Part shown: in pieces, positions 9,011 through 47,518 of the stretch
How the letters are laid out: the number at the start of each line of letters is the position of its first letter
Position numbering within the stretch: the first letter of the stretch is position 1
Sequence record: OQ349392.1
From: Escherichia phage KIT06
DNA: 64,000 bases
Direction: 5' to 3' (one strand)
Notes under the pieces: model-generated
Database searches by the model: none
Seen by the model: only the letters and a program-made list of their open reading frames with translations
Told to the model about the DNA's origin: nothing
Made by a program: the position numbers and the translations under genes

Positions 9011-9034
9011 AGTCTCCTTCGGGAGACTTTTTTC
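9011..9034 (+). terminator. rho-independent terminator (UUCG tetraloop hairpin)
   Basis: AGTCTCC TTCG GGAGACT followed by TTTTTT. Confidence 0.75.
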
Positions 9035-9043
9035 ATTTTACCG

Positions 9044-9074
9044 GTTTACTTTCCATTTGAGCTGTGATACTATA
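9044..9074 (+). promoter_or_regulatory. T4 early-type promoter with conserved leader
   Basis: GTTTAC 9044-9049; -10 region TGATACTATACAACTATC shares the leader motif repeated at 12950, 14869, 40921. Confidence 0.5.
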
Positions 9075-9101
9075 CAACTATCGGATAAAGAGGAGAACAT
9101 C

Positions 9102-9290
9102 ATGAAAATTGAAGCACTTAATCAAGAAGGAAATATCTACGTCATCATTAATGGTGATTTTTTCGTCGACATGGATGAAGTTACCAGTGAAGAACTTGAA
9201 AAACTTCTTAAGAAACGTTATGATATGTGTGATGAAGCTGCAACTCATATGGCGTGTGCAATATTCTCTCTTTCATATGTGGTGGAATAA
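9102..9290 (+). CDS. hypothetical protein
   Basis: 62 aa from ATG 9102 with SD AGAGGAG (ORF track 9057 is a non-ATG start). Confidence 0.5.
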
Positions 9291-9690: not shown

Positions 9691-9853
9691 AAAGCAGATG
9701 TTTTTAATGAAGCTAATTGAAGAATATGCTAATGCAGTTTCTGACTATGAGTATTCTTCTCGTGAAAGAGGTACAGCTTTCGCAAAGGAAGAAATGAAAA
9801 TCATGGTTGATGCTCACACAAAGCTTCAGAATTTTATTGAAAACGTCATTTAA
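9680..9853 (+). CDS. hypothetical small protein
   Basis: 57-aa ORF below ORF-track threshold; ATG 9680 with SD AGGTGG; ends at TAA 9851-9853. Confidence 0.35.
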   Translation: MKTEKQMFLMKLIEEYANAVSDYEYSSRERGTAFAKEEMKIMVDAHTKLQNFIENVI

Positions 9854-9855
9854 TG

Positions 9856-9885
9856 GTTTACAAGTTGGCAAGGTTATGGTATAGT
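9856..9885 (+). promoter_or_regulatory. T4 early promoter
   Basis: GTTTAC 9856-9861, TGGTATAGT with -10 at 9880-9885. Confidence 0.6.
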
Positions 9886-10066
9886 AATCTTGTCAACTGC
9901 CAAGGAGAAGAGAATGAAAATTTTGTTTGTTGTGTATGTGATGATTCAATATAATTACCCAATGTTTACTTATAATCTAGTGAACAACATTATTGATATT
10001 ATTCAAAGGAGTATGTAATGACAAATGAACAAGCTTTTAAGTTAAGAGAATTAATTGAAACTTTAA

Positions 10067-10883: not shown

Positions 10884-11405
10884 ATGTTTATTTCAAGTGA
10901 AAGCGGTTTAATTCGTGTTGAATTTAAAAATGACATCTTCCTTATTCAAGGAGATGATATTATTAAAATGAGTTATGATGAAATTAAGAAAATTTGTAAT
11001 GCTCTTGAAAATCATGGAAAGGTGAATGCTGTCATTGATATTGGCGATTTATGGGTGACACTTTATGAAGTATCCGAAGGATTTAACATTGAAGATGAAA
11101 ACAACATCTTAGCTATTGATAAAAGAAGTGATTTGTTTGATGTGTTAAAAGTTTATGAACAGTCAAACGGTGGAAGAAAAGCTGCATTGATTTATCAAAA
11201 ACCACATTCATGCGGAACTGCTTCAATCATTTCAGATATTGAAGATGAAACTGATACTTATATGTGTATTTTAAAAGCTGGTGGTGACCGTCATCCGGAT
11301 TTTATTTCTATTCGTCAAAACAATGGAGAAATTTCATTATCAAAATCAGAAGCTGAAGCTATGATTAAGTATTTAACAACTGTTACACCTTCAATGAAAG
11401 GATAA
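10884..11405 (+). CDS. hypothetical protein, paralog of 10347..10877
   Basis: 173 aa; SD GAGGAA; C-terminus SEAEAMIKYLTTVTPSM resembles upstream neighbour. Confidence 0.5.
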   Translation: MFISSESGLIRVEFKNDIFLIQGDDIIKMSYDEIKKICNALENHGKVNAVIDIGDLWVTLYEVSEGFNIEDENNILAIDKRSDLFDVLKVYEQSNGGRKAALIYQKPHSCGTASIISDIEDETDTYMCILKAGGDRHPDFISIRQNNGEISLSKSEAEAMIKYLTTVTPSMKG

Positions 11406-11407
11406 TT

Positions 11408-11869
11408 ATGATTATTAATGAAAGCTCTTGGCACTATAAATTATTCAAAATGTTTAACGACGAATGGAAACGACCTAAGACACTGTGTGCATATTTTTGG
11501 TCTATTGTTATCCCTACATTTTTCGTTTCTTTTTTCGGATGTACTATACTCGCAGGTCTAACTATCATCTGCGCAGAAATCATGCAGAAATGGCTTATTT
11601 TTGGTAGTTTATGGACTCTTATTCCATCAGCATTTATACTTGCTATTTTGCTTGTTTTACTTATTATTGGTTCATTTGTTATTCCTGCACAATTGCATGA
11701 AAAATATAAAGATTATAAATGGAAAAAGGATTATGCTTTACATGTAGAAAATATTGATAGAGCGTATAAAGGTTTACCTCCTATTCAACCAAAGAAATCT
11801 ATTATCGTCGAATTTTTAAAAGCGCGTAAAGCTAAAGTATGTCCTGTTATTGAATATAAGGCTGAATGA
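11408..11869 (+). CDS. hypothetical integral membrane protein
   Basis: 153 aa with 3-4 hydrophobic helices. Confidence 0.5.
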   Translation: MIINESSWHYKLFKMFNDEWKRPKTLCAYFWSIVIPTFFVSFFGCTILAGLTIICAEIMQKWLIFGSLWTLIPSAFILAILLVLLIIGSFVIPAQLHEKYKDYKWKKDYALHVENIDRAYKGLPPIQPKKSIIVEFLKARKAKVCPVIEYKAE

Positions 11870-12880: not shown

Positions 12881-12906
12881 AGGGAGCCTTCGGGCTCCCT
12901 TTTTTG
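12881..12906 (+). terminator. rho-independent terminator (UUCG tetraloop)
   Basis: AGGGAGCC TTCG GGCTCCCT followed by TTTTTT. Confidence 0.8.
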
Positions 12907-12927
12907 TTTAAATGACGTCACAAAGTT

Positions 12928-12957
12928 GTTTACAAGCATAAAGCTTTGTGGTACTAT
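12928..12957 (+). promoter_or_regulatory. T4 early promoter with conserved leader cassette
   Basis: GTTTAC 12928-12933, TGGTACTAT -10 at 12952-12957, then leader ACAACTATCAACTGATG...GGAATAAAATG. Confidence 0.6.
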
Positions 12958-12991
12958 ACAACTATCAACTGATGTGGATTTGGGGAATAAA

Positions 12992-13141
12992 ATGAAAACT
13001 ACGTTAATTGAAGTAAAAAAGTTGATTGACACAGAAGAGATTTCAGCTTATTTTGAAAATTTCTTAGAAGATGCAACTGAAGATAACGCGGTTTATCTCG
13101 CTCAGAAAATTATAGAAACATATTTGGAGCAGAATCAATGA
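12992..13141 (+). CDS. hypothetical small protein
   Basis: 49 aa from first ATG (ORF track 12827 is a non-ATG start spanning terminator and promoter). Confidence 0.4.
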   Translation: MKTTLIEVKKLIDTEEISAYFENFLEDATEDNAVYLAQKIIETYLEQNQ

Positions 13142-13401
13142 CAGTTTACGTAGATGTTTTAATGAATCATGGATGGAAACTTCGCGGTCATCCAACTAAA
13201 AATTGTCATATGTTCACTGATGGAGATATTGAAGAGCTTCATGAAATGGCAGAAGCAATAGGAATGAAACGTTCTTGGTTTCAAGATAAACGCATTAAAC
13301 ATTATGACTTACACGCGCGGCGACGCCAAAAAGCCGTAGAACTTGGAGCTGTAGAAGTATCTCGTCGCGAAGCAGTAAAAATTTGGCGAACATTAAAATA
13401 A
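13138..13401 (+). CDS. hypothetical protein (DUF4031-like)
   Basis: 87 aa; recalled resemblance to the DUF4031 family (CHMFTDGDIEELHEMAEAIGMKRSWFQ...HYDL); not verified. Confidence 0.45.
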   Translation: MTVYVDVLMNHGWKLRGHPTKNCHMFTDGDIEELHEMAEAIGMKRSWFQDKRIKHYDLHARRRQKAVELGAVEVSRREAVKIWRTLK

Positions 13402-13404
13402 ATT

Positions 13405-13434
13405 GTTTACAGTAGGGTAGTAGTGTGATACTAT
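13405..13434 (+). promoter_or_regulatory. T4 early promoter embedded in inverted repeat
   Basis: GTTTAC 13405-13410, -10 GATACTAT; flanked by AGGGTA (13413-13418) and TACCCT (13435-13440). Confidence 0.5.
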
Positions 13435-13470
13435 TACCCTATCAAAACAAATGTGAAATTGGAGAATAAA

Positions 13471-14439
13471 ATGAAAACTGTAACTATCAATAAGGGTATC
13501 TACTTCGGTAAAGAAATCTCTGGAACTTTTGAGCTTTTAGGCGAATGGTTCCCAGATAATGCTCCGGTAGATGCACAAGGAGATGGTAAAGTTTTTGTTG
13601 AAATTGACGGTAAACGTCGCGGTGTTTGGGTTTACAAATCAGATATTTCATATGATGGTGTAAAAGTTGAAGAAGTTAAAGAATCATATGAAGATATGAA
13701 AACCCGCATTAATAAAAGATTTAATGTTATGGGAATGATGACGAATGGTATTATTAACGGAAATATTCGTTCATTGATTATCTCTGGCGCAGCAGGTATT
13801 GGTAAAACGTATTCTTTAGATAAAGCTTTAAATAAAGCAAATGATATTGGATACATTGAATATAAAAGCATTAATGGTAAAATCTCTGGTATTGGTCTTT
13901 ATGAACAGCTTTGGAATAATCGTGAAGAGAATTCTGTCCTTTTGATTGATGATGTGGATGTTTTCTCTGATATGGACATTCTTAATCTTCTAAAAGCTGC
14001 TCTGGACACTGGAGAGACCCGTAAAGTCTGCTGGAGCACTGCATCTTCTTACTTAGAAGAAAAAGGCATTGACCGTGAGTTTGAATTTAAAGGAACGATT
14101 GTTTTTATCACAAACGTTGACATTGACCGCGAATTAGACCGTGGTACTAAACTTGCCCCACACTTACAAGCATTAGTGTCCCGCTCAGTTTATTTGGATT
14201 TGGGTGTTCACACTAATGAAGAAATTATGGTCAGGGTTGAAGATGTTATTCTTTCAACTGACATGATGCAAAAGCGCGGTCTTTCTGATGAAGAAACTTA
14301 TAAAGCATTATCATGGATGAAAGTTAATGTTAATCGTTTACGCAATGTTTCACTGCGTACTGCTCTTTATCTTGCTGACTTTATTATGACCGACAAAAAC
14401 GGTTGGGAAGAAATTGCTGAGGTTACTCTTCTGAAATAA
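13471..14439 (+). CDS. AAA+-type ATPase
   Basis: 322 aa from ATG 13471; Walker A ISGAAGIGKTYS, Walker B VLLIDDVD; SD GGAGAA. Confidence 0.6.
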   Translation: MKTVTINKGIYFGKEISGTFELLGEWFPDNAPVDAQGDGKVFVEIDGKRRGVWVYKSDISYDGVKVEEVKESYEDMKTRINKRFNVMGMMTNGIINGNIRSLIISGAAGIGKTYSLDKALNKANDIGYIEYKSINGKISGIGLYEQLWNNREENSVLLIDDVDVFSDMDILNLLKAALDTGETRKVCWSTASSYLEEKGIDREFEFKGTIVFITNVDIDRELDRGTKLAPHLQALVSRSVYLDLGVHTNEEIMVRVEDVILSTDMMQKRGLSDEETYKALSWMKVNVNRLRNVSLRTALYLADFIMTDKNGWEEIAEVTLLK

Positions 14440-14540: not shown

Positions 14541-14843
14541 ATGTTATACTCAAAGGCTCGTGAAATTTACGAAACTAAGATTAAAGAAGCTGTATTTCAA
14601 TTCGCAACGACAATGCGATGGACAAATGATTGGGAATATTCAAAAAATCATAAGAAGCCCTTGGTGACAAGAAAGGCTCATATGTTAGTGTTAATAGACC
14701 GTGAGCAGATTAAAGCCCGAGAAGCCCTCCAGAATCATAAAAAGGCTGCCTTTGAATGGTTTATGGATAACACTGCTCCTGAGACTAAGAAAGCAGTGAG
14801 CGCTTGGTTCAGTGGAAAAAATTGTGAAAGAAGTTTCTTTTAG
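14541..14843 (+). CDS. hypothetical protein
   Basis: 100 aa from ATG 14541 with SD GGAGG. Confidence 0.45.
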   Translation: MLYSKAREIYETKIKEAVFQFATTMRWTNDWEYSKNHKKPLVTRKAHMLVLIDREQIKAREALQNHKKAAFEWFMDNTAPETKKAVSAWFSGKNCERSFF

Positions 14844-14845
14844 TG

Positions 14846-14875
14846 GTTTACAAGACTGTTCCTCTGTGGTACTAT
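14846..14875 (+). promoter_or_regulatory. T4 early promoter with conserved leader cassette
   Basis: GTTTAC 14846-14851, TGGTACTAT -10 at 14870-14875; 9-bp inverted repeat CTGTTCCTC/GAGGAACAG at 14856-14864 and 14892-14900. Confidence 0.6.
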
Positions 14876-14903
14876 ACAACTATCAACTACGGAGGAACAG
14901 AAA

Positions 14904-15431
14904 ATGAACGCTAAAGATATTTTCAACTTGGTAAATTACAATGATGGTAAATTTAAATCTGAAGCACAGAGTAAGTTCTTTAATGACATCTCAATCGGAG
15001 GTGAAATCACTGTTGATGGAGGACAAATTTACAAATCCCGTTGGAATTGGATCGTTATTATTGATGAGATTGGTATTGTAGAAATTTACAAGAATACGAA
15101 TAAAAATCGTACATTACACTGGTCTCGTGATACTAACGAACAGTACAAAAAGGATAAAGCATCTAAATTATCTCGTGTAACTCAAGAAGATATTGAGTTC
15201 ATCAAGAAAGATATTTTAATGTATGATAACTTAATTGCTGAAGAGCAAGCTGTTATTGATAAATTTGATGAGATTAAAGCTTCTCGTGAAATTCCTGATT
15301 TTATGAAAGAATCAGTAAATGAACGATACACTCTCATTTCAGAGCGTATTGAAACTTACAAAAAGCAAAGAGCTGAACGCCAAAATACTCTTCGGAAGTT
15401 TGAAGAACGGTTAAAGACGGTACTCGCATAA
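14904..15431 (+). CDS. hypothetical protein
   Basis: 175-aa ORF with SD GGAGGAA, charged coiled-coil-like C-terminus. Confidence 0.5.
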   Translation: MNAKDIFNLVNYNDGKFKSEAQSKFFNDISIGGEITVDGGQIYKSRWNWIVIIDEIGIVEIYKNTNKNRTLHWSRDTNEQYKKDKASKLSRVTQEDIEFIKKDILMYDNLIAEEQAVIDKFDEIKASREIPDFMKESVNERYTLISERIETYKKQRAERQNTLRKFEERLKTVLA

Positions 15432-16800: not shown

Positions 16801-17829
16801 ATGAAAACTCGTTCTCAAATTGAAGATATGGTTCGTACTGCCAGTGATACTCGTAATGTTATGACATTTTTGTGTGAAAATAATTTAGACCCTGATAAAG
16901 TTAATCGTGTTATTCATCACTTTAAGTATACGAATAGCAGTGAATGGGTGCGTAATTTTAGTAAAGCGGGTTATATTACACAAATGACTGCTCGTGAGCA
17001 ACTCACCGATTTCTGTAAAACTATTGATTATAAAAATCCTCTATTTGTTCAAGGCGTTGGTCAAAGTAAGGTCGATTTATCATCTGGATTTTTCAATCCA
17101 AATCATTATCGTATTGAATGGAGATTTATTGCTCTGTTCCGTAGACAATTAAAGCAAATTTTATCAACTGCGAGTCGATTAAAAGGTTCTGATATTAATT
17201 TAAAGAATCTGAAATTTGATGGTTATACTCTTCAGATGGAAGTAAGACCATTAAAAGAAAATAATAGAACTGCACGAATTAGCTTTAAACCTAATACAAA
17301 AAATTCTCTTTCAATTTGCGAATGCCTTAAATCGCAGTTGACAGAAGCATTTAAGTATATGGATGTTGTTGCCGCTGTTCAGTCTAAGATTTTACCTCGT
17401 TTTGAGCGATTTAAATTAGACACAACAACATATGAACTTGATATGATCGTTTCATTTAAATACGATTTTTTGAGAAAGGATGAAGTCACGCAAGAGAAAA
17501 AGCAAGAAGTGCAAGATAACTTAAATTTAAATTTATCCAATTACTCATCAAACGACCCTAAATTTTGGATGTATAGCTCAAGCAATATAGATGCATGTAA
17601 ACTTAATAAAGTGAGTTTTCTTCCTACTGAAAATTCAAATTTTAAACCTGTAGAAAAATGGCACGCTGACGCGATTGAGAAGTCTCTTGAGGCAGTAGAT
17701 GATGAACTCGTTAAAGCGACCAATGAAGTGCTAGAAGCTGAAAAGGTGTTAGAACAAGCTCAGTCAAGGGTTCAAAATCTGACAAAGCAACGTTCTAAAC
17801 TGAACAATGCACTAAATGCACTGAACTAG
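16801..17829 (+). CDS. hypothetical protein with C-terminal coiled coil (paralog family member 2)
   Basis: 342 aa; C-terminus EAEKVLEQAQSRVQNLTKQRSKLNNALNALN. Confidence 0.5.
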   Translation: MKTRSQIEDMVRTASDTRNVMTFLCENNLDPDKVNRVIHHFKYTNSSEWVRNFSKAGYITQMTAREQLTDFCKTIDYKNPLFVQGVGQSKVDLSSGFFNPNHYRIEWRFIALFRRQLKQILSTASRLKGSDINLKNLKFDGYTLQMEVRPLKENNRTARISFKPNTKNSLSICECLKSQLTEAFKYMDVVAAVQSKILPRFERFKLDTTTYELDMIVSFKYDFLRKDEVTQEKKQEVQDNLNLNLSNYSSNDPKFWMYSSSNIDACKLNKVSFLPTENSNFKPVEKWHADAIEKSLEAVDDELVKATNEVLEAEKVLEQAQSRVQNLTKQRSKLNNALNALN

Positions 17830-17858
17830 TTTACTTTGCCACAAGGATGTGGTATAAT
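17829..17858 (+). promoter_or_regulatory. T4 early promoter
   Basis: GTTTAC 17829-17834, TGGTATAAT with TATAAT 17853-17858; near-identical copy at 63946-63975. Confidence 0.65.
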
Positions 17859-22488: not shown

Positions 22489-24302
22489 CAATTGAAAAAG
22501 AAATTGAAGGATTGATTCATAAAACTAATAAAGACCTTTTAAACGAGAATGCTAATAAAGATTCTCGTGTTTTTCCAACTCAACGGGACCTTATGGCTGG
22601 TATTGTGTCTAAACACATTGCCAAAAATATGGTCCCGTCTTTTATTATGAAAGCGCATGAAAGCGGAATTATTCATTTCCATGATATTGATTATTCCCCT
22701 GCTCTTCCATTTACTAATTGCTGTTTAGTAGATTTAAAAGGAATGCTTGAGAACGGATTTAAGCTCGGTAATGCACAGATTGAAACTCCTAAATCAATCG
22801 GTGTTGCTACTGCAATTATGGCACAAATTACTGCACAGGTTGCTTCCCATCAATATGGTGGAACGACTTTTGCGAATGTAGATAAAGTACTTTCTCCTTA
22901 TGTTAAACGCACCTATGCAAAACATATTGAGGACGCAGAAAAATGGCAAATCGCTGATGCGTTGAATTATGCCCAATCTAAAACAGAAAAAGATGTATAC
23001 GATGCATTCCAAGCTTATGAATACGAAGTAAATACTCTCTTTAGTTCAAACGGACAAACGCCTTTTGTAACAATTACATTTGGTACGGGAACTGACTGGA
23101 CTGAACGAATGATTCAGAAAGCAATTCTGAAAAATCGTATTAAAGGCCTTGGTCGCGACGGGATAACTCCTATTTTCCCTAAACTTGTTATGTTCGTTGA
23201 AGAAGGTGTTAATCTTTATAAAGACGATCCGAACTATGATATTAAGCAGCTTGCTCTAGAATGTGCAAGTAAAAGAATGTATCCTGACATCATTTCGGCT
23301 AAGAACAATAAAGCTATCACCGGTTCATCTATTCCTGTTTCTCCAATGGGTTGTCGTAGTTTCTTGGGTGTATGGAAAGATTCGACTGGTAATGAAATTC
23401 TTGATGGACGTAATAATCTTGGTGTTGTAACACTGAATCTTCCTCGCATTGCACTAGATTCTTATATTGGAACACAGTTCAATGAACAGAAATTTGCCGA
23501 ATTGTTCAATGAGAGAATGGATTTATGTTTTGAAGCATTGATGTGTAGAATTAGTTCATTAAAAGGAGTTAAAGCTACTGTTGCTCCTATTCTTTACCAA
23601 GAAGGTGCATTCGGGGTTCGTCTTAAACCTGATGACGATATAATTGAGTTATTTAAAAACGGTAGAAGTTCAGTGTCTTTGGGATACATTGGTATTCACG
23701 AATTGAATATTCTTGTCGGTCGTGATATTGGACAAGAAATTTTAACTAAAATGAATGCTCATCTTAAGCAGTGGACTGAAAGAACTGGTTTTGCTTTTAG
23801 TTTGTATTCGACACCTGCTGAAAACCTGTGCTATCGCTTCTGTAAACTTGATACCGAAAAATATGGAAGTGTAAAAGATGTTACCGATAAAGGCTGGTAC
23901 ACTAACAGTTTCCACGTTTCAGTAGAAGAAAATATCACTCCGTTTGAAAAGATTTCTCGTGAAGCACCATATCATTTCATTGCGACAGGTGGTCACATTT
24001 CTTATGTTGAACTTCCTGATATGAAAAATAACCTAAAAGGTCTTGAGGCTGTATGGGATTATGCTGCGCAACATTTAGATTATTTTGGCGTTAACATGCC
24101 AGTAGATAAATGTTTTACGTGTGGAAGTACCCATGAAATGACTCCTACTGAAAACGGATTTGTTTGTTCTATTTGTGGAGAAACTGATCCTAAAAAGATG
24201 AACACAATAAGAAGAACATGCGGATATCTTGGAACTCCTAGCGTTGTTCCATGGAATTTAGGTAAAATGAAAGAAATGGTAAAACGAGTAAAACATGCAT
24301 AG
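22485..24302 (+). CDS. nrdD: anaerobic ribonucleoside-triphosphate reductase NrdD (intronless)
   Basis: Continuous 605-aa ORF; C-terminal zinc ribbon CFTCGS...CSICGE and glycyl-radical region RRTCGYLG; no intron interruption unlike T4. Confidence 0.95.
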   Translation: MTIEKEIEGLIHKTNKDLLNENANKDSRVFPTQRDLMAGIVSKHIAKNMVPSFIMKAHESGIIHFHDIDYSPALPFTNCCLVDLKGMLENGFKLGNAQIETPKSIGVATAIMAQITAQVASHQYGGTTFANVDKVLSPYVKRTYAKHIEDAEKWQIADALNYAQSKTEKDVYDAFQAYEYEVNTLFSSNGQTPFVTITFGTGTDWTERMIQKAILKNRIKGLGRDGITPIFPKLVMFVEEGVNLYKDDPNYDIKQLALECASKRMYPDIISAKNNKAITGSSIPVSPMGCRSFLGVWKDSTGNEILDGRNNLGVVTLNLPRIALDSYIGTQFNEQKFAELFNERMDLCFEALMCRISSLKGVKATVAPILYQEGAFGVRLKPDDDIIELFKNGRSSVSLGYIGIHELNILVGRDIGQEILTKMNAHLKQWTERTGFAFSLYSTPAENLCYRFCKLDTEKYGSVKDVTDKGWYTNSFHVSVEENITPFEKISREAPYHFIATGGHISYVELPDMKNNLKGLEAVWDYAAQHLDYFGVNMPVDKCFTCGSTHEMTPTENGFVCSICGETDPKKMNTIRRTCGYLGTPSVVPWNLGKMKEMVKRVKHA

Positions 24303-25125
24303 GTATTATATAATTTATAAAATAACAAATATAATTAATTCAAAGGAATATATCGGTGCGCATAGCACCGATAACATAAATGACGGTTATATGGGGTCAG
24401 GAACATTGATTCGTGCCGCTTTATTAAAATATGGTAGAAAAAATTTTAATAAAGAAATTTTACATGTTTTTGATAATGAAAAACAAATGTATGATAAAGA
24501 AGCTGAACTCGTAACCGAAGAGTATTGTCTAAAAGAAAATACATATAATATTAAACCTGGTGGAAAAGGTGGAACTGCCTATGAACAGACACTTGAACAT
24601 CGCCGCAAAAATAGTTTAGCAAATAAAGGTAAAAAGAGAACAGAAGAAACTAAAATAGCTATTTCACGTGCTTTAAAGAAATATAAACGTACGCCAGAGC
24701 ATCAAGCAAATTTAAATAAAGCCGTAAGCATAGCTATGAAGCGAAAAGATGTTAGAAGTAAATTAGCTGGAGAGCGGTCTGAGAAAGATAAATTATCTAT
24801 ATCAAACGGTGTTAAAAAATATTACAATTCTTTGAGTGAAGAAGAACGCGAACTTCATCGCAAGCGAATTATTGAAGGTAAAAAGAATTCTCCCATGTCA
24901 TTGGAATCTAGACAAAAGCTTTCAAAAGCTTTAAAAGGACTTCAAGTTGGTTCAAAAAATCCAATGTATGGAAAAATTTCTCCAACTAGCAAAACCGTTT
25001 CAGTTGACGGTATTAAATATGATTCAATTAAAAAGTGCTCAAATGCCATAAAAGTTTCTAGACATCTTATACTAAAACGCTGTAATTCTACTGATGAAGC
25101 TTGGAAAAATTGGATATTATTATGA
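24295..25125 (+). CDS. GIY-YIG homing endonuclease (Seg/Mob-like), free-standing between nrdD and nrdG
   Basis: 276 aa; GIY-YIG motifs YIIYKITN...EYIGAHS...GSG...NTYNIKPGG; repeated NUMOD3-like DNA-binding repeats (KNSLANKGKKRTEETK, SRQKLSKALKG). Confidence 0.85.
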   Translation: MHRYYIIYKITNIINSKEYIGAHSTDNINDGYMGSGTLIRAALLKYGRKNFNKEILHVFDNEKQMYDKEAELVTEEYCLKENTYNIKPGGKGGTAYEQTLEHRRKNSLANKGKKRTEETKIAISRALKKYKRTPEHQANLNKAVSIAMKRKDVRSKLAGERSEKDKLSISNGVKKYYNSLSEEERELHRKRIIEGKKNSPMSLESRQKLSKALKGLQVGSKNPMYGKISPTSKTVSVDGIKYDSIKKCSNAIKVSRHLILKRCNSTDEAWKNWILL

Positions 25126-25592
25126 ATTATGACAGAATATACCCGTGTTGCTTTGTTAACGGTCCTGGGTGCCGAACTGTTCTTTTCGTTACAGGTTGTT
25201 TGCATAAATGTGAAGGGTGTTATAATAAATCAACATGGAATGCTAGAAATGGCGTTCCATTCACTGGTGAAACACTAGAACAATTAATTAAATGTTTGAA
25301 TAATGATTATATAGAAGGATTAACTATAACTGGAGGAGACCCTCTCTATCCAGATAACCGAGATGTTGTTCATTGCATTGTTCAAACAGTAAAAAATCTT
25401 TATCCGAATAAAAGCATTTGGTTGTGGACAGGATATAAGTTTGAAGATATTAAACAACTAGAAATGCTTAAATATGTTGATGTTATTATTGATGGGAAGT
25501 ATGAGAAAAATCTTCCGACCAAAAAGCTGTGGCGAGGTTCAGATAATCAGCGACTTTGGTCAAATACCGATGGGGTGTGGAAACATGATTAA
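25122..25592 (+). CDS. nrdG: anaerobic ribonucleotide reductase activating protein NrdG
   Basis: 156 aa from ATG 25122; radical-SAM-like cysteine motifs CCFVNGPGC and CLHKCEGC. Confidence 0.9.
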   Translation: MNYDRIYPCCFVNGPGCRTVLFVTGCLHKCEGCYNKSTWNARNGVPFTGETLEQLIKCLNNDYIEGLTITGGDPLYPDNRDVVHCIVQTVKNLYPNKSIWLWTGYKFEDIKQLEMLKYVDVIIDGKYEKNLPTKKLWRGSDNQRLWSNTDGVWKHD

Positions 25593-29880: not shown

Positions 29881-29928
29881 TGCTTTATAAATTTTTGGTA
29901 AAATAAACCAAAACAATGAGGATATTAA

Positions 29929-31131
29929 ATGAAAGTATGTATTTTTATGGCTCGAGGTCTTGAAGGTTGCGGTGTAACTAAATTTTCTCTTGAGCAGCGT
30001 GATTGGTTTATTAAAAATGGTCATGAAGTAACTTTGGTTTATGCTAAAGATAAATCATTTACTCGTAATTGCGCGCATGATTATAAATCATTTTCAATTC
30101 CGGTTTTATTGGCAAAAGAATACGATAAAACGCTTAAGCTGGTAAATGATTGTGATATTCTAGTTATCAATTCAGTTCCTGCTACTTCAGTCGAAGAAGA
30201 CACAATTAATAACTATAAAAAAATTATTGATAACATTAAACCTTCGGTTCGTGTTGTAGTTTATCAGCATGACCATTCTTCTCTTTCTTTGCGTCGAAAT
30301 TTGGGATTAGAAGAAACTGTTCGTCGAGCTGATGTTATTTTTAGCCATTCTGATAATGGCGATTTTAATAAAGTTTTAATGAAAGAATGGTATCCAGAAA
30401 CTGTTTCACTGTTTGATGATATTGAAGAAGCACCGACTGTATATAACTTTCAGCCTCCTATGGATATTGCGAAGGTTCGATCAACTTACTGGAAAGATGT
30501 TTCTGAAATTAACATGAATATCAACCGTTGGATTGGTCGTACTACTACATGGAAAGGCTTTTATCAGATGTTTGATTTTCACGAAAAACATCTTAAACCT
30601 GCAGGACTAAGTACTATTATGGAAGGTCTGGAACGTTCTCCAGCGTTCATTCCTATTAAAGAAAAAGGAATTCCATACGAGTATTATCGTCTTCATCAAG
30701 TAGACCAAATTAAAATTGCTCCTAATTTGCCGACGCAAATTCTCGACCGTTATGTAAATAGCGAAATGCTTGAACGCATGAGTAAATCCGGATTTGGTTA
30801 TCAGCTGAGTAAATTAGATAAAAAATATCTACAGCGTTCTTTAGAATATACTCATCTCGAGCTTGGTGCGTGTGGAACAATTCCGGTATTTTGGAAATCT
30901 ACTGGCGAAAATTTAAAATTCCGTGTTGATAATACTCCGTTAATTTCACATGATAGTGGTATCGTTTGGTTTGATGAAAATGACATGGAATCAACATTTG
31001 AACGTATTAAAGAACTGTCATCTGATCGAGCTCTTTATGACCGTGAACGTGAAAAAGCTTATGAATTTTTGTATCAGCATCAAGATTCAAGCTTCTGCTT
31101 TAAAGAACAGTTTGACATTATTACAAAATAA
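29929..31131 (+). CDS. a-gt: DNA alpha-glucosyltransferase
   Basis: 400 aa, same as T4 alpha-gt; sequence recognised along whole length. Confidence 0.9.
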   Translation: MKVCIFMARGLEGCGVTKFSLEQRDWFIKNGHEVTLVYAKDKSFTRNCAHDYKSFSIPVLLAKEYDKTLKLVNDCDILVINSVPATSVEEDTINNYKKIIDNIKPSVRVVVYQHDHSSLSLRRNLGLEETVRRADVIFSHSDNGDFNKVLMKEWYPETVSLFDDIEEAPTVYNFQPPMDIAKVRSTYWKDVSEINMNINRWIGRTTTWKGFYQMFDFHEKHLKPAGLSTIMEGLERSPAFIPIKEKGIPYEYYRLHQVDQIKIAPNLPTQILDRYVNSEMLERMSKSGFGYQLSKLDKKYLQRSLEYTHLELGACGTIPVFWKSTGENLKFRVDNTPLISHDSGIVWFDENDMESTFERIKELSSDRALYDREREKAYEFLYQHQDSSFCFKEQFDIITK

Positions 31132-40818: not shown

Positions 40819-40899
40819 TACAAGTAATATAAATCTATACTTAGGAAAAATAGATGATTCTGGGCCCTTTGAATTCATTAAAAATTTTTTCACAAAATG

Positions 40900-40929
40900 G
40901 TTTACATCCCGGTTCCTTTATGGTACTAT
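40900..40929 (+). promoter_or_regulatory. T4 early promoter with conserved leader cassette
   Basis: GTTTAC 40900-40905, TGGTACTAT -10 at 40924-40929, leader ACAACTATCAACTGATG...GGAGAATGAAATG. Confidence 0.6.
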
Positions 40930-40963
40930 ACAACTATCAACTGATGCGGATTTGGAGAATGAA

Positions 40964-41344
40964 ATGAAAATCGCTATTTTGGTTATTGCATTGGGTCTTA
41001 CTGGTTGTGTAGCTCAAGGACCAGTAGTAAATCAGTCTGATGTAGGAAAAATTGTAAACTGTTCAAGCAAATTTTATAATCCTAATGTTAAGTGTTATAA
41101 AGAAGCTCCAAAACAGACAGTAGAACAAATGCAGGCGAATTTTGACGAAGCTATTCGTCCAGATGAATCTGCCCAAGCATATCGTAATTCAGATGTAATT
41201 ACACGCGAAGAAAAAATTGAAAGCTACTGCGCTGAACTTTGGGCAAATTGGGCTAATAATTACCAATGGCGTACTGGTAAAAATGCTCCGATGGAGTATG
41301 TAGTAAATTCTTATAATTCATGTGTAAAAAATTTAACTAAGTGA
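40964..41344 (+). CDS. lipoprotein (imm.1 position)
   Basis: 126 aa from ATG 40964; signal peptide with lipobox LTGC. Confidence 0.55.
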   Translation: MKIAILVIALGLTGCVAQGPVVNQSDVGKIVNCSSKFYNPNVKCYKEAPKQTVEQMQANFDEAIRPDESAQAYRNSDVITREEKIESYCAELWANWANNYQWRTGKNAPMEYVVNSYNSCVKNLTK

Positions 41345-41756: not shown

Positions 41757-42497
41757 ATGATTAATGACTCTATGACAGTTGAAGAAATTCGTCTTCATTT
41801 GGGAATTGCATTAAAGGAAAAAGATTTTGTAATTGACAAAACCGGGGTTAAAACTATTGAAATTATTGGTGCATCATTTGTAGCAGATGAACCTTTTATT
41901 TTTGGTGCTCTTAATGACGAATACATTCAGCGTGAACTTGAATGGTATAAATCTAAAAGCTTGTTTGTTAAAGATATTCCAGGTGAAACACCGAAGATTT
42001 GGCAACAAGTAGCATCTTCTAAAGGTGAAATTAACTCGAATTATGGTTGGGCTATCTGGTCAGAAGATAACTATGCTCAGTATGATATGTGTTTAGCTGA
42101 ACTTTGTCAAAATCCTGATTCTCGACGTGGTATCATGATTTATACTCGTCCATCCATGCAATTTGACTACAATAAAGATGGTATGTCAGATTTCATGTGT
42201 ACTAATACAGTACAGTACCTGATTCGTGATAAGAAAGTCAATGCAGTCGTTAACATGAGAAGCAATGATTGCTGGGCAGGCTATCGTAATGATTATGCAT
42301 GGCAAAAATACGTATTAGATAAATTAGTATCTGATTTGAATGCAGGCGACCCATCGCGGCAATATAAAGCAGGTTCTATTATATGGAACGTTGGAAGTCT
42401 TCATGTGTACGAAAATCAGTTTTATTTAGTTGACCATTGGTGGAACACTGGTGAAACTCATATTGCTAAAAAGGATTATACTGGAAAATGGAAGTAA
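41757..42497 (+). CDS. 42: dCMP hydroxymethylase gp42
   Basis: 246 aa as in T4; thymidylate-synthase-like fold; sequence recognised. Confidence 0.95.
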   Translation: MINDSMTVEEIRLHLGIALKEKDFVIDKTGVKTIEIIGASFVADEPFIFGALNDEYIQRELEWYKSKSLFVKDIPGETPKIWQQVASSKGEINSNYGWAIWSEDNYAQYDMCLAELCQNPDSRRGIMIYTRPSMQFDYNKDGMSDFMCTNTVQYLIRDKKVNAVVNMRSNDCWAGYRNDYAWQKYVLDKLVSDLNAGDPSRQYKAGSIIWNVGSLHVYENQFYLVDHWWNTGETHIAKKDYTGKWK

Positions 42498-43129
42498 ATG
42501 TGCCACATGTTTATAAGTATAAACATCCTAAAACTAAAAAGTGGTATATAGGAAGTCATGATGGTCACAACCCGAATTATGATGGTTCGGGTGTAGTTTG
42601 GCAACATGCTAAAAAGAAATATGGAATAAAATCCTTTAATAAAGAAATATTATATGAAGGACCAATGTTTAGACAAGTTGAAGAAATTATTTTAACTTGT
42701 TTAGATGCTGCTAATTGTCCGGATTCATATAATTTAAAGAATGAAGCATGGGGAGGAAGTTTTCCAGGCAAATTAAATGGAATGTACGGTAAAAAACTAT
42801 CTCCAGAAGAAAGATATAAGTGCGGAAATGCCTTTCGTGGAATCAAGCGTCCTGATCATTCTAAAAGAATGAAAGGCGAAGGTAATCCAATGTATGGTAA
42901 AAATGAGCAGGCATATGGAATTATAAATCGAGCAAAGGAAAATTCTGGTAAAACTTATGAAGAAATTTTTGGCGCAGAAAAAGCTAAAATAATTAAAGAA
43001 ACGATGTCTAAAAATCGTAAAGGAAAACCTCATAATTTGATAGAAAAAATATGTCCGCATTGCGGACTAAAAGGACGTGGGCCAAATATGACAAGATACC
43101 ATTTTGACAAATGTAAGGCACTTAAATGA
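42488..43129 (+). CDS. GIY-YIG homing endonuclease (Seg-like), free-standing
   Basis: 213 aa; GIY-YIG motifs VYKYKHP...KWYIGSH...GSG...YNLKNEAWGG; NUMOD3-like GEGNPMYGK; C-terminal zinc finger CPHCG...HFDKC. Confidence 0.8.
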   Translation: MEVNVPHVYKYKHPKTKKWYIGSHDGHNPNYDGSGVVWQHAKKKYGIKSFNKEILYEGPMFRQVEEIILTCLDAANCPDSYNLKNEAWGGSFPGKLNGMYGKKLSPEERYKCGNAFRGIKRPDHSKRMKGEGNPMYGKNEQAYGIINRAKENSGKTYEEIFGAEKAKIIKETMSKNRKGKPHNLIEKICPHCGLKGRGPNMTRYHFDKCKALK

Positions 43130-43968
43130 TTCAATTTGTAATTCCAAGTTATCAACGCGTAGGGGCAGTTTCTGCCCTTGATATGTTTCCGACTGATTAT
43201 GAACCTCATATTGTAGTACGTGAACACGAAGAAAAAGCTTATTTTGACGCTTACGGGTCTAGAGCTAAAATTATAACTATTCCTGATGATGTTAATGGAA
43301 TTGCTGGAACTCGTAAAGCAATTACTGATATGTATGCAGGTCAACGAATTTGGATGATCGATGATGATACTACTATTCGTATGAGTTCAATGCGAAAGAA
43401 AGATGATCGTCGCTGCGTAGATAAAATTAATCAGTTAACTCGTGAACAGTTCTATGAATTGATTCAATATGTTGAAGATGCCATGGATTGCGGATATTAT
43501 CATGGCCATGCTCGTTTACCAATTTTTAAAATTACTTCATCTTGGGGTAATTATCGTGAAAATTCATATGGATTCACGAATACATGGTATGACCTTGGAA
43601 AACTTACGACAGAACAAATTGGGTATGGAAAAATTGATTTATGCGAAGATATGTATGCATTTCTCAATTTAATTAATCAAGGTTATCCGCATTTGGCCTT
43701 GTTCAAATATCTGGTTGTGTCTGGAAAAGCACAAGCTCCAGGTGGATGTAGTTCAATTCGTAGTAATTCAAAACATAATAGAGCTCTTGAGCAAATCAAT
43801 AGAGAGTTTCCAGAGCAAGCTCGTTGGAAAACATCGAATATTGAAAAGAGAAAATCGTTGGGTGAAGAAGACGAGCCATTAAAGGTTCTTCGCATGTGTG
43901 TTTCGCGCAAAGAAAAATCAGAAGCGTTTCATAAGTTTAATGCTATTCATCCAATAGCAGTCGATTAA
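43126..43968 (+). CDS. GT-A-fold glycosyltransferase at the beta-gt locus (candidate beta-glucosyl-HMC-alpha-glucosyltransferase)
   Basis: 280 aa; GT2-like N-terminus FVIPSYQR and DXD motif WMIDDDT; not similar to T4 beta-gt (351 aa) by recall. Confidence 0.55.
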   Translation: MIQFVIPSYQRVGAVSALDMFPTDYEPHIVVREHEEKAYFDAYGSRAKIITIPDDVNGIAGTRKAITDMYAGQRIWMIDDDTTIRMSSMRKKDDRRCVDKINQLTREQFYELIQYVEDAMDCGYYHGHARLPIFKITSSWGNYRENSYGFTNTWYDLGKLTTEQIGYGKIDLCEDMYAFLNLINQGYPHLALFKYLVVSGKAQAPGGCSSIRSNSKHNRALEQINREFPEQARWKTSNIEKRKSLGEEDEPLKVLRMCVSRKEKSEAFHKFNAIHPIAVD

Positions 43969-44045
43969 TGCCTAAATTTATTGTGTTATAATTACTTTAT
44001 CTTTAACCAGTGAGGAAAATATAATGATGCCTATGGAAAAAATGA

Positions 44046-45227
44046 ATGTCTATTGCAGATTTAAAATCCCGTTTGATTAAAGCTTCCACTTCTAAAATGA
44101 CTGCTGAACTGACTACATCTAAATTCTTTAATGAAAAGGATGTAATCCGTACAAAAATCCCAATGCTTAATATCGCTATTTCTGGTGCGATTGATGGTGG
44201 TATGCAGTCTGGTTTAACCATTTTTGCAGGTCCTTCTAAACACTTTAAATCAAATATGTCTTTGACTATGGTTGCGGCGTATTTGAACAAATATCCTGAT
44301 GCGGTTTGTTTATTTTATGATAGCGAATTTGGTATTACTCCAGCTTATTTGCGATCCATGGGAGTTGACCCGGAACGAGTAATTCATACACCAATTCAGT
44401 CAGTTGAACAGCTGAAAATTGATATGGTGAATCAGCTTGAAGCTATTGAGCGCGGTGAAAAAGTTATTGTATTCATCGACTCAATCGGTAATATGGCTTC
44501 TAAGAAAGAAACGGAAGATGCCTTGAATGAAAAATCTGTGGCAGATATGACTCGTGCTAAATCACTGAAGTCATTATTCCGTATTGTTACTCCTTATTTT
44601 AGTATTAAAAACATTCCGTGTGTTGCGGTTAACCACACAATTGAAACAATTGAAATGTTTAGTAAAACCGTGATGACAGGTGGTACAGGCGTAATGTATT
44701 CGGCTGATACTGTATTCATTATCGGTAAGCGCCAGATTAAAGATGGTTCTGATCTTCAGGGGTATCAATTTGTTCTAAATGTAGAAAAATCTCGTACCGT
44801 TAAAGAAAAAAGTAAATTCTTTATTGATGTTAAATTTGACGGTGGTATCGATCCTTATTCTGGATTGTTAGATATGGCTCTTGAATTAGGATTTGTAGTA
44901 AAACCTAAAAATGGTTGGTATGCTCGTGAATTTCTTGACGAAGAAACCGGCGAGATGATTCGCGAAGAAAAATCTTGGCGTGCAAAAGATACCAATTGCA
45001 CTACATTCTGGGGTCCTTTATTTAAGCATCAACCATTCCGAGATGCTATTAAACGTGCTTATCAGTTAGGTGCTATTGATAGTAATGAAATTGTTGAAGC
45101 TGAAGTTGATGAATTGATTAACTCAAAGGTTGAAAAATTTAAATCTCCAGAAAGTAAAAGTAAATCAGCCGCTGATTTAGAAACTGACCTAGATCAGTTA
45201 AGTGATATGGAAGAATTTAATGAATAA
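44046..45227 (+). CDS. uvsX: RecA-like recombinase UvsX
   Basis: 393 aa; Walker A GPSKHFKS, near-identical to T4 UvsX along length with small N-terminal indel. Confidence 0.97.
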   Translation: MSIADLKSRLIKASTSKMTAELTTSKFFNEKDVIRTKIPMLNIAISGAIDGGMQSGLTIFAGPSKHFKSNMSLTMVAAYLNKYPDAVCLFYDSEFGITPAYLRSMGVDPERVIHTPIQSVEQLKIDMVNQLEAIERGEKVIVFIDSIGNMASKKETEDALNEKSVADMTRAKSLKSLFRIVTPYFSIKNIPCVAVNHTIETIEMFSKTVMTGGTGVMYSADTVFIIGKRQIKDGSDLQGYQFVLNVEKSRTVKEKSKFFIDVKFDGGIDPYSGLLDMALELGFVVKPKNGWYAREFLDEETGEMIREEKSWRAKDTNCTTFWGPLFKHQPFRDAIKRAYQLGAIDSNEIVEAEVDELINSKVEKFKSPESKSKSAADLETDLDQLSDMEEFNE

Positions 45228-47001: not shown

Positions 47002-47030
47002 TTTACAAGCTGACAGGACTATGGTATAGT
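47001..47030 (+). promoter_or_regulatory. T4 early promoter
   Basis: GTTTAC 47001-47006, TGGTATAGT with -10 at 47025-47030. Confidence 0.65.
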
Positions 47031-47059
47031 AGTCTTGTTGGTTAAATGAGGAGATTGTT

Positions 47060-47486: not shown

Positions 47487-47488
47487 TA

Positions 47489-47518
47489 GTTTACAAGCTG
47501 ATAGAGTTGTGTTATAGT
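47489..47518 (+). promoter_or_regulatory. T4 early promoter embedded in 10-bp inverted repeat
   Basis: GTTTAC 47489-47494, TGTTATAGT -10 at 47513-47518; inverted repeat AGCTGATAGA (47496-47505) / TCTATCAGCT (47522-47531). Confidence 0.6.

Follow-up and report, generated by a model that had tools for sequence, protein, structure and literature searches.

The 64,000-nt stretch of the KIT06 genome analysed here (the window) carries a family of T4-type early promoter plus 5'-leader cassettes that very probably serve two ends, starting transcription and providing joints for recombination, with copies kept alike by selection, descent and exchange. We propose that the cassettes form a sub-family of the 'uber' UP/-35/TGn/-10 promoters that would be set apart by an exact 22-nt core, TGGTACTAT-ACAACTATCAACT. 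Judged by its sequence, each copy would fire immediately after infection by means of host RNA polymerase (sigma-70) and would yield a leader that is short and unstructured. Its purine-rich end would be the Shine-Dalgarno (SD) sequence and, if composed of GGAG plus AAUAAAA, possibly also a RegB/S1 site that inactivates early mRNA later. The likeness of the copies would then reflect selection on the RNA polymerase, ribosome and RegB contacts, common descent, and continuing homologous recombination or gene conversion both within and between co-infecting T-even genomes. Small ORFs, with or without their own promoter, could be added, removed or substituted, the junction lying in a cassette, either at its leader/SD/ATG-AAA end or at its UP/-35 end. 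We regard the cassette as a portable joint because the same 20–90 nt precede many unrelated genes.

A T4-type promoter family with a shared 22-nt core

The window comes from a Tequatrovirus (T4-like) genome that is ~94–97% identical to T4; it is oriented with early transcription and is collinear with T4 2.4–62 kb, minus strand. The pattern GTTTAC-N15-TGnTAnnAT has 13 exact matches in the window, all on the + strand, with 0.1 expected. Four of these lie at 9044, 12928, 14846 and 40900, the -35 GTTTAC at 12928 starting where an earlier note on this DNA had placed it, while the copy at 60286 retains TGG and TACTAT but has ATATAC (2 mismatches) as its -35. Both features by which a T4 early promoter (Pe) is recognized, TTTACA-N17-TAnnAT spacing and a TGn extended -10, are present. 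All five copies are orthologous to T4 promoters, namely those upstream of mobD.5, nrdC.10, nrdC.8 and imm.1 and that of the motB/cef spacer, and the synteny map, together with identical promoters at T4 58780, 55384, 53943 and 27080, shows them in matching position and in the orientation of early transcription.

T4 early promoters were reportedly described by Liebig & Rueger in 1989, Wilkens & Rueger in 1996 and Miller et al. in 2003. They consist of UP, -35, TGn and -10 elements plus further consensus regions (Hinton 2010, PMC2988021). The window copies share with them the GTTTAC -35, the 15-nt gap, TGn, the TAnnAT -10 and, to a degree that varies between copies, an A/T-rich UP-like arm, and we see no essential difference. 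The arm AAAAATTTTTTCACAAAA occurs at 40879, at 60243 and in T4 copies, with less A/T-rich arms at 12949 and 14867. The annotation of relatives labels these elements T4 early promoter or terminator; the annotators' consensus, GTTTAC(N14)gtggTAttaT, ends at the -10, whereas the sub-family described here is also identical over the next 13 nt. Promoter activity in this phage is to be expected from these signals, with a putative start site at ~12964 placed by spacing only.

The exact 22-mer TGGTACTATACAACTATCAACT is found at 12949–12970, 14867–14888 and 40921–40942, with 0 expected in shuffles, and comprises TGn, the -10 TACTAT, the discriminator ACAACT and the start region ATCAACT. Diverged versions lie at 60286–60307 (3 mismatches) and 9065 (TGATACTATACAACTATCGGAT, differing at 4/22), and all five copies lead to an ATG where the earlier note had read one (12992, 14904, 40964, 9102 and 60338). 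In an unbiased search for repeats the cassette ranked first among the dispersed repeat families of the window (D1). We modelled promoter sequence position by position from the window's 9 remaining early promoters; by this model two promoters would agree over all 22 nt with a probability of 1.6e-8, or of 2.4e-7 if the family is itself counted in. Over the 13 nt downstream of the -10, family members agree at 13/13 positions, while non-family pairs agree at a mean of 4.4 and a maximum of 9. Identity thus continues past the -35/-10 into the leader far above a T4 early promoter consensus plus SD (P ~1e-8 for 22/22), and the outcome that would have spoken against the earlier note, identity merely at that level, was therefore not what we found. 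Part of the shared sequence is nevertheless explained by an extended T4 early-promoter consensus together with the RegB/S1 site GGAGAAUAAAA.

The 22-mer, its coordinates, the excess identity and the unrelatedness of the downstream proteins (no blastp pair below E ~0.1) all stood as first described. Other parts of that description did not: the leader motif as written and the extent of leader identity, both discussed below, and the placement of the family in the hyperplastic region, which holds for just three copies in the nrdC-mobD region, as the 40921 copy directly follows core gene 43. A related sixth cassette at 13426, within 13405–13473 and with another -10/start type, had been missed; it agrees with the 12949 copy at 19/24 positions of the leader end.

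Leaders, ribosome-binding ends and candidate RegB sites

The copies consist of a TGn/-10/start-site part followed by an unstructured leader of 22–37 nt, an SD and an ATG; a strong early promoter with an SD and a start codon at its 3' end is found in all five, at 13405 and at 47489. All features that follow are on the + strand. The first cassette begins with an intrinsic terminator hairpin, AGGGAGCC-UUCG-GGCUCCCU plus a U-run, which a terminator scan placed at 12881–12900, where it ends nrdC.11; it is annotated as a terminator in the relatives ASO78A and Lutter. We take this hairpin (fold -20.4 kcal/mol, z=-3.9) as the stem-loop part of the 12949 cassette. Pattern matching places the promoter core, GTTTAC-N15-TGGTACTAT with spacer type S1, at 12928–12957; it is the orthologue of the promoter upstream of T4 nrdC.10 (T4 55384–55355) and is a promoter in the Lutter annotation. 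After the first exact 22-mer (12949–12970) comes a predicted leader, 12964–12991, delimited by leader comparison and by a start assumed from spacing only to lie 7 nt past the -10, and it ends in the SD-like GGGGAATAAAA (12982–12992). Alignment to T4 revealed the left copy of a 21-nt direct repeat, TTGG(G/A)GAATAAAATGAAAACT, at 12980–13000. The cargo of the polymorphic module described below (12992–13401) consists of ORFa at 12992–13141 (49 aa, without a family) and ORFb at 13138–13401 (87 aa, DUF4031).

The sixth cassette, which we call type B, was recognized at 13405–13473 by pattern and comparison and reads GTTTAC-N15-TGATACTAT-TACCCTATCAAAA. An inverted repeat (13415–13424/13430–13439) spans its -10, and its leader ends in an exact RegB consensus, GGAGAATAAAA (13461–13471), followed by the nrdC.10 ATG at 13471. 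The T4 promoter that separates frd.2 from frd.1 matches it at 94% identity, and it has relatives upstream of internal-protein (IP) genes in other phages; the 22-mer copies, type A, have a different 13-nt sequence downstream of the -10. The right copy of the 21-nt direct repeat, at 13459–13479, is identical to the single T4 copy.

The second exact copy (14846–14906) has spacer type S2, leader ACGGAGGAACAGAAA and the nrdC.8 ATG at 14904, with its T4 orthologue at 53943. Its inverted repeat, 14856–14870/14886–14900, pairs the spacer with the SD region, and upstream of the 14867 promoter lies a weak A/U-rich hairpin, GAAAGAA-GUUU-CUUUU (14825–14842; z=-1.7 over a 61-nt stretch), of the AGNA-loop-TCNT type known from T4/PST promoter-early stem-loops, PeSLs (Comeau 2014, PMC4122927). 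The third (40879–40966) combines the UP-like arm AAAAATTTTTTCACAAAATG, a -35 at 40900, leader GATGCGGATTT and SD GGAGAATGAAA (40954–40964) with the ATG (40964) of imm.1, a DUF5481 lipoprotein-like gene, and a fold z test gave no upstream hairpin. The first diverged copy (9011–9104) runs from a terminator hairpin (9011–9028) through a promoter (9044–9073) and TGATACTATACAACTATCGGAT (9065–9086) to the SD GAGGAG and the ATG, at 9102, of a mobD.5 homologue; its T4 orthologue is at 58780. The second (60265–60340) has the weak -35 ATATAC, TGGTACTATATCAATATCAACT at 60286–60307, an e.8-type leader, ACTGATACAGAAAACAACTT, and an exact RegB consensus (60328–60338) before the ATG of an 89-aa ORF at 60338.

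According to the earlier note the purine-rich leader ended in GGA(G/A)AAT(A/G)AAATG in the copies at 12949, 14867 and 40921, the other two being diverged. That motif fits just the copies at 40921 (GGAGAATGAAATG) and 60286 (GGAGAATAAAATG), the actual ends being GGGGAATAAAATG at 12949, GGAGGAACAGAAAATG at 14867 and GAGGAGAACATCATG at 9065. Long leader identity is likewise confined to one pair, 12949 and 40921, which agree at 21/24 leader positions (P ~4e-6) and over 93% of the whole 55-nt unit; none so long was seen among the other copies.

We scored RegB/S1 sites by GGA, G at position 4 and an A-rich 7 nt (GGAGRAYARAA; optimum GGAGAAUAAAA). The sequence GGAGAAUAAAA is the published 11-nt RegB/S1 optimum (Durand et al. 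2006, PMC1702504), and in T4 RegB cleaves in vivo at the SD of motA efficiently and at the GGAG of nrdC.8 moderately. The T4 sites resemble the window leaders in lying in the SD, within RNA predicted to be unstructured, and T4 motA, a good RegB substrate, has the same 22-mer promoter as the window copies. RegB cleavage may also occur in this phage. In the window the exact consensus occurs at 13461 and 60328 only, a count of 2 that is not significant alone (6/100 shuffles reach 2). The site at 40954 has G at position 8 (one mismatch), that at 12982 reads GGGG and has lost the essential GGA, and 14891 and 9065 have other, A-poor tails. With the GGA lost at 12949 and a G at position 8 at 40921, RegB cannot explain all of the leader conservation; we rejected it as the sole cause, the strict consensus being present in two leaders only, and kept it as a partial explanation. 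Predicted leader folds were no better than those of shuffles, except that the 12949 leader pairs with its own downstream ORF. A scan of the whole window returned no Rfam family at threshold and therefore no known structured RNA, and with no conserved leader fold we dropped a riboswitch or attenuator reading.

Mosaic cassettes in T4 and its relatives

The earlier note had suggested a search of other T4-like genomes. T4 itself has six exact copies of the 22-mer, upstream of the unrelated genes motA, imm.1, nrdC.8, nrdC.10, e.8 and ndd.6, corresponding to 6 of its 24 strict early promoters, and the cassette occurs at 2335 places in 545 phage records. Spacer, start and leader types appear in all combinations between loci and phages, so that the cassettes are mosaics. 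In T4 the frd.3 promoter matches that of nrdC.10 at every position over 54 nt, spacer included, and the imm.1 coding start (4 codons, 12 coding nt; ATGAAAATCGCT) is found on the ndd.6 copy. A rare leader variant, GATGCGG, belongs to the nrdC.10 locus in RB18, whereas CT01, ime09 and HY01 have it at imm.1. The variant sits at one paralogous locus or the other depending on the phage, a hint of gene conversion between the copies. G-variants at both loci, as in this window and three relatives, may instead reflect shared ancestry (the Tequatrovirus ecnp1 clade), phylogeny being uncontrolled in this comparison.

Could the copies simply have been optimised independently for RNA polymerase, ribosome and RegB/S1, with no part played by descent, exchange or shuffling? 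The distribution of conservation is in keeping with such convergence, as the best-conserved blocks coincide with contacts already known, namely the UP-like arm, GTTTAC, TGn, the -10 and the SD/RegB site GGAGAAUAAAA, variation is greatest in the 15-nt spacer, where no base-specific contacts are made (6–9/15 between family members), and a looser ..TATC start motif is also found in non-family promoters. Independent optimisation does not account, however, for the functionless-looking block GAT(A/G)(C/T)GGATTT common to leaders (within the 21/24 match above), for spacers common to different loci (the 54-nt identity and the recurring S2 and S3 types), for imm.1 coding bases on the ndd.6 copy, or for indel junctions inside cassettes. 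Furthermore, the 13-nt start region is missing from 18 of the 24 strict T4 early promoters, which are presumably also strong. We consider pure convergence quite improbable and retain the combination of selection, descent and exchange.

Another unlikely reading is that the block ACAACTATCAACT is an operator-like or polymerase-modulating mark giving motA, imm.1, nrdC.8, nrdC.10, e.8 and ndd.6 a common behavior, for instance in Alt responsiveness, in the timing of early shut-off or in sigma-dependent pausing at a second -10-like AACTAT. We know of no factor for it. The block is exact in the same 6 of 24 T4 early promoters, and a different subset has a discrete type of its own, TACCCTATCAA. Also in keeping with a regulon, Alt stimulation differs among promoters with identical -35/TGn/-10, and the mechanism of early shut-off is given as unknown (Hinton 2010, PMC2988021). 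At one and the same locus, however, phages can differ in type (the ndd.4 start region belongs to type B in T4 but to type A in a T-even from IMG/VR), which speaks against a gene-specific regulatory requirement, and orthologous promoters (mobD.5, dexA) have substitutions in the block. That the 13-nt blocks, type A ACAACTATCAACT and type B TACCCTATCAA, are functional 'flavours' sorting early promoters into classes, and not simply left over from descent, is similarly a long shot. If it were true, the classes could differ in Alt/ModA responsiveness, in early shut-off timing or in sigma-70-dependent proximal pausing, and cassette recombination would re-assign genes, motA included, between classes. 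The pausing site would be the second -10-like element, AACTAT.

Gene gain and loss, probably by passive exchange

Small-ORF indels between the window and its relatives have junctions inside cassettes, as is characteristic of PeSLs. One involves a polymorphic ~480-bp module at 12992–13470, two ORFs plus the second promoter, that is absent from T4 and present in 154 of 541 phage records (~28% of sequenced Tequatroviruses). It is flanked by the 21-nt leader/ATG repeat, and the two window blocks overlap on T4 55312–55332. Between gene 43 and imm.1 an extra 78-aa ORF is joined at ATGAAAAT, and denB/ndd has alternative ORFs between relatives. A further cassette-plus-ORF module not in T4 (47489–47809) has the promoter GTTTAC-N15-TGTTATAGT, which contains a perfect 10-bp inverted repeat (47496–47505/47522–47531) and belongs to repeat family D3, and an 84-aa ORF (47550–47804); the module is inserted at the -35 GTTTAC (47804–47809) of the spackle promoter. 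We rejected the view that all window-versus-T4 insertions are cassette-mediated: most are homing-endonuclease or intron presence/absence, or other events that show only 5–8 nt of microhomology at gene boundaries. The difference at 60345–60546 was likewise rejected as a cassette event, being a T4 deletion inside an ORF.

The excess identity, mosaicism, shared non-signal and coding bases and indel junctions support the earlier suggestion of duplicated or mobile regulatory cassettes, provided that mobility is taken as passive. Around three copies we looked for terminal inverted repeats and for target duplications and came upon only promoter-internal palindromes and the terminator, neighboring ORFs are without transposase or integrase domains, and the copies occupy orthologous positions in T4. 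For these reasons we rejected a transposon or MITE origin, and the cassettes would be mobile in the passive sense only, by homologous recombination between dispersed repeats. T-even genomes contain many Seg/Mob endonucleases, and one might imagine promoter-plus-ORF units as actively moved by an enzyme of their own (recombinase, transposase or homing endonuclease) that recognizes the cassette, which would suit the inverted repeats across several promoters. A possible specific DNA-binding/recombination protein has been suggested, and PeSL mini-circles were detected in RB49/phi1 (Arbiol 2010, PMC2839356). Such targeting is very improbable here, given the findings just listed; moreover, crossing over at the junctions involved plain homology or microhomology, 8–21 nt long, and mobA, mobB, mobC, mobD, segA, segF and I-TevII are missing at the compared T4 positions with the cassettes kept.

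Passive exchange at promoter cassettes has a direct precedent in PeSLs, described as 'mobile regulatory cassettes' (Arbiol et al. 2010, PMC2839356; Comeau et al. 2014, PMC4122927), for which the T4/PST consensus is TTTACW-N17-TAYWAT (Comeau et al. 2014, PMC4122927). Like PeSLs, the window cassettes are composites of an A/T-rich region, an early promoter (here TTTACA-N17-TACTAT), an SD and a start codon; both are enriched in hyperplastic regions, adjoin ORFs that vary between close relatives, and have indel junctions inside. The PeSL stem-loop often lies upstream of or overlaps the promoter. In the window an upstream stem-loop exists at 9011–9028 and 12881–12900, giving 2/5 copies (9065, 12949) a strong upstream terminator hairpin, and inverted repeats overlap the promoter at 12924–12963, 14856–14900, 13415–13439 and 47496–47531. 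The copies at 40921 (z=+0.9) and 60286 (z=-0.3) have no upstream hairpin, so the full PeSL definition does not apply to every copy. The exact junctions also differ, being at the 3' (SD/ATG-AAA) end or the -35 and not at the stem-loop.

Elements of ~70 bp with an early promoter and inverted repeat flank T-even IP genes, according to the account of Repoila et al. 1994 given in Arbiol 2010. As far as that account goes, the type B cassette resembles them in that an inverted repeat overlaps its early promoter, and it matches IP upstream sequences of other T-evens and T4 promoters near ipI/trna.4; it is nevertheless located before nrdC.10 in the nrdC region, not at an IP locus. The finding is thus real and correctly interpreted, and it is already known, as T4 early promoters, PeSL cassettes and RegB sites; modular shuffling at cassettes is the published PeSL mechanism.

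Morons, reportedly described by Hendrix et al. in 2000, and integron cassettes offer an analogy for promoter-carrying gene modules. The modules at 12992–13470 and 47489–47804 are similar in consisting of small accessory ORFs with their own promoter and/or terminator. They differ in that there is no integrase/attC and no opposite-strand insertion, and in that the conserved regulatory sequence is itself the recombination substrate. The cassettes would matter in two ways, as they provide for immediate firing of T-even early genes, and as dispersed homologies of 20–90 nt at which phages acquire, lose and trade accessory genes, many of them probably serving host range or anti-defence. For T4-type phages this view is established and generally accepted. 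Slightly beyond the papers cited above, the comparison gives a base-level junction, the 21-nt leader/ATG repeat, for a polymorphic module, shows how spacer, start-region and leader types combine into mosaics, and adds a rare leader variant whose locus, one of two paralogues, differs from phage to phage.

Identity of the cassettes beyond the promoter consensus

The 22-mer TGGTACTATACAACTATCAACT occurs exactly at 12949, 14867 and 40921, with none expected in shuffled sequences, and in diverged form at 60286 (3 mismatches) and 9065 (4 differing positions). This recurrence had been described in the earlier note, whose start-codon (ATG) coordinates were all correct on checking but which overlooked a sixth related cassette at 13405-13473. 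All copies of the 22-mer sit within the canonical T4 early-promoter pattern GTTTAC-N15-TGnTAnnAT. The window has 13 matches to this pattern (0.1 expected), every one of them on the + strand. In a BLAST map, window 6021-64000 aligns collinearly with T4 (NC_000866) 62000-2404 on the T4 minus strand, so the window + strand is the T4 direction of early transcription. The unit consists, in order, of an A/T-rich arm (best copies: AAAATTTTTTCACAAAA), GTTTAC, 15 nt of variable spacer, TGG-TACTAT, ACAACT and ATCAACT, the last block holding the inferred transcription start. Inverted repeats cross the core promoter at 12949, 14867, 13426 and 47489. In an unbiased repeat search the cassette was the top dispersed repeat of the window (family D1), and the other families were also mostly promoter, terminator or ribosome-binding-site modules.

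The cassette promoters are members of the T4 early-promoter class, are already so annotated in relatives, and aligned T4 early promoters have extra consensus regions besides UP, -35, TGn and -10 (Hinton 2010, PMC2988021). The copies are nevertheless more alike than this consensus predicts. Under a position-specific model built from nine other early promoters of the window, the probability that two promoters share every one of the 22 nt is P=1.6e-8 (2.4e-7 with the family included in the model). Over the 13 nt after the -10, non-family pairs share a mean of 4.4 positions (maximum 9), as against 13/13 within the family, and the last 24 nt before the ATG are identical at 21 positions between 12949 and 40921 (mean 9.9; P about 4e-6). 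Comparison of the encoded proteins confirmed that the genes downstream of the five copies are unrelated; they specify a 49-aa ORF, NrdC.8, Imm.1 (DUF5481), a MobD.5 homologue and an 89-aa ORF.

T4 itself carries six exact 22-mers, upstream of ndd.6, motA, e.8, nrdC.10, nrdC.8 and imm.1, so that six of the 24 T4 early promoters that are strictly canonical contain it; a seventh promoter, of frd.3, equals that of nrdC.10 over 54 nt, spacer included. In IMG/VR the 22-mer was found in 20 stretches of T-even contigs, ahead of at least 9 different N-termini. A 96-nt cassette query matched 2335 places in 545 phage records. These belong to Tequatrovirus in essentially every case; Klebsiella JD18-like and Salmonella STML-198 phages gave weak, partial matches. 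The 4-kb stretch around the cassettes, covering genes nrdC.6-nrdC.11, is matched at ~96-98% identity by more than 470 Tequatrovirus genomes, and the nearest relatives of the window are of the Tequatrovirus ecnp1 type.

Leaders, hairpins and RegB sites

The observation is real, with its leader motif corrected: the purine-rich ending GGA(G/A)AAT(A/G)AAATG, once ascribed to the whole family, holds only for 40921 and 60286; 12949 has GGGGAATAAAATG instead, and the Shine-Dalgarno (SD) regions of 14867 and 9065 differ. Leaders of 22-37 nt are followed by the SD and ATG, often with AAA next. Strong UUCG-loop terminators lie upstream of 9065 and 12949 and a weak A/U hairpin precedes 14867; no upstream hairpin was found at 40921 or 60286. 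The leaders folded as unstructured, and comparison with Rfam matched no family.

The RegB/S1 endoribonuclease site of T4 early mRNAs, GGAGAAUAAAA (GGAGRAYARAA), is single-stranded and usually coincides with the SD; motA is a good substrate and nrdC.8 is moderately cleaved (Durand et al. 2006, PMC1702504). Predicted sites match the RegB optimum exactly at 13461 and 60328 and the consensus with one mismatch at 40954, whereas at 12982 the essential GGA is lost and the T4 orthologue keeps GGAG. Part of the recurring purine-rich leader end is thus this known dual SD/RegB signal, which leaves the leader body GAT(A/G)(C/T)GGATTT unaccounted for.

Gene gain, gene loss and probable exchange between cassettes

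In T4 a 12949-type promoter and leader is joined directly to nrdC.10. The window separates the two by ORFa, ORFb (DUF4031) and a second promoter (13405-13473), and this insert is bounded by a 21-nt repeat, TTGG(G/A)GAATAAAATGAAAACT, at 12980-13000 and 13459-13479 that is single-copy in T4. The long form occurs in 154 of 541 phage records, the others having the T4-like short form. At 43/imm.1 several phages have an extra 78-aa ORF whose boundaries fall directly after GGAGAATAAAATGAAAAT and ATTATTATGAAAAT. In Shigella phage CT01 (OK018184.1, 1255-1330) the imm.1 cassette lacks its -35, and its remaining part, from the 3' half of the spacer through 22-mer and leader, is joined directly to the interior of this ORF; the half cassette looks like a recombination scar, the ORF apparently having once lain between two cassettes. 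At denB/ndd, an example in Comeau 2014 (PMC4122927) of promoter-early stem-loop cassettes (PeSLs), different ORFs follow the same cassette. T4 lacks another promoter and ORF module, at 47489-47804, whose insertion point is the GTTTAC of the spackle promoter; a perfect 10-bp inverted repeat covers the -10 of the module.

Two further observations concern genes behind cassettes. The 89-aa ORF behind 60286 (60338-60607) is intact in the window; in its T4 counterpart (T4 6557-6500) ~200 bp of the interior are deleted, with microhomology AAAAYT, and after this deletion the T4 motB/cef 'spacer' keeps promoter, leader, RegB site and a stub ORF. NrdC.10 (13471-14439) has weak, sub-threshold AAA/STAND NTPase matches (AAA_14, E=8e-5; nSTAND3, E=5e-4) around a P-loop at residues ~100-125.

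Judged by their sequences, the cassettes are mosaics, which is evidence for descent and exchange. Spacer types are S1 (nrdC.10 and frd.3), S2 (nrdC.8 and ndd.4), S2' (imm.1), S3 (e.8 and the window's imm.1), S4 (motA) and S5 (ndd.6), start-region types are A (ACAACTATCAACT) and B (TACCCTATCAA), and spacer, start-region and leader types are found in many combinations. T4 has a type B ndd.4 promoter and another T-even phage a type A one, and the T4 ndd.6 copy carries the first four imm.1 codons, ATGAAAATCGCT, in a frame that stops after 8 codons. RB18 has the rare leader variant GATGCGG at the nrdC.10 locus; CT01, ime09, HY01 and others have it at the imm.1 locus. The window and its relatives EcNP1, Nami and JE01 have G-variants at both loci, 27-28 kb apart, a hint that would fit gene conversion between paralogous cassettes, clade structure being uncontrolled.

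Relation to known elements and other repeats

Excess identity, mosaics and shuffling junctions support the original reading of the copies as duplicated or mobile regulatory cassettes. Such a feature is known already, both in kind and within the same lineage: PeSLs were described as 'mobile regulatory cassettes' with a role in modular shuffling, first in RB49/phi1 (Arbiol 2010, PMC2839356) and next, explicitly, for the T4/PST pair, where the consensus is TTTACW-N17-TAYWAT and SD plus ATG form the 3' end (Comeau 2014, PMC4122927). Both the composite unit and its shuffling role are published under that name. Unlike full PeSLs, 40921 and 60286 lack the stem-loop and are therefore 'promoter+leader' units. 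The counterpart of the type-B cassette (13405-13473) is the promoter/inverted-repeat element that Repoila 1994, as summarised in Arbiol 2010, noted on the flanks of IP genes. The cassettes probably move passively, by homologous recombination or gene conversion that joins dispersed regulatory repeats, not by transposition. What is added here is a junction, resolved to the base, of a widely polymorphic module, together with the combinatorial mosaic and a hint of conversion between paralogues.

Cassette events were rejected as an account of all differences from T4; most of the other differences are homing-endonuclease genes, introns or short microhomologies at gene boundaries. T4 mobD, I-TevII (nrdD intron), mobC, mobB, b-gt+segA, segF and mobA/60.1 are absent or replaced in the window, where 10902-11858, 23020-23043, 24238-25419, 29913-29941, 42489-44058, 50731-51162 and 63546-63611 do not align; such mob, seg and I-TevII events make up most of the large differences. 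At window 50187-50228 (T4 17725-16805) nothing corresponds to the dam methyltransferase gene of T4 (T4 16846-17625), the flanking blocks being only ~41 bp apart, and the adjoining gene 56 region is unusually diverged (78% identity).

Other repeats were also observed. Two early promoters separated by 46 kb, at 17827-17858 and 63944-63975, show 94% identity across 32 nt, spacer included (TAGTTTACTTTGCCACAAGGATGTGGTATAAT), and T4 has the same pair at 50973 and 2458. D3, the third sub-family of promoters (GTTTACAAG...TGGTATAGT), has an inverted repeat spanning the -10 and occurs at 9846-9909, 46991-47054 and 47479-47542; around the 61.4 region 488 bp separate two of the copies, a tandem layout of the type for which excision as mini-circles has been proposed. 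The D5 family, dispersed through the replication-gene region, is a second kind of repeated regulatory module and consists of near-identical UUCG-tetraloop terminator hairpins (A/G-GGGCTTCGGCCC-TTT) of ~22 nt each at 27487, 31127, 35837, 38007 and 62056. Finally, a 54-aa ORF at the T4 61.1 position (48784-48948) has an N-terminus, MKTFKEFIKE, nearly identical to the leader of the ORF at 2127 (MKTFKEFIAE), which resembles the capsid-targeting leader of T4 internal proteins; the repeat search grouped the first 30 nt of such ORFs as D7 (2125, 2469 and 48782), and the 54-aa ORF may encode an IP-like packaged protein outside the IP loci.
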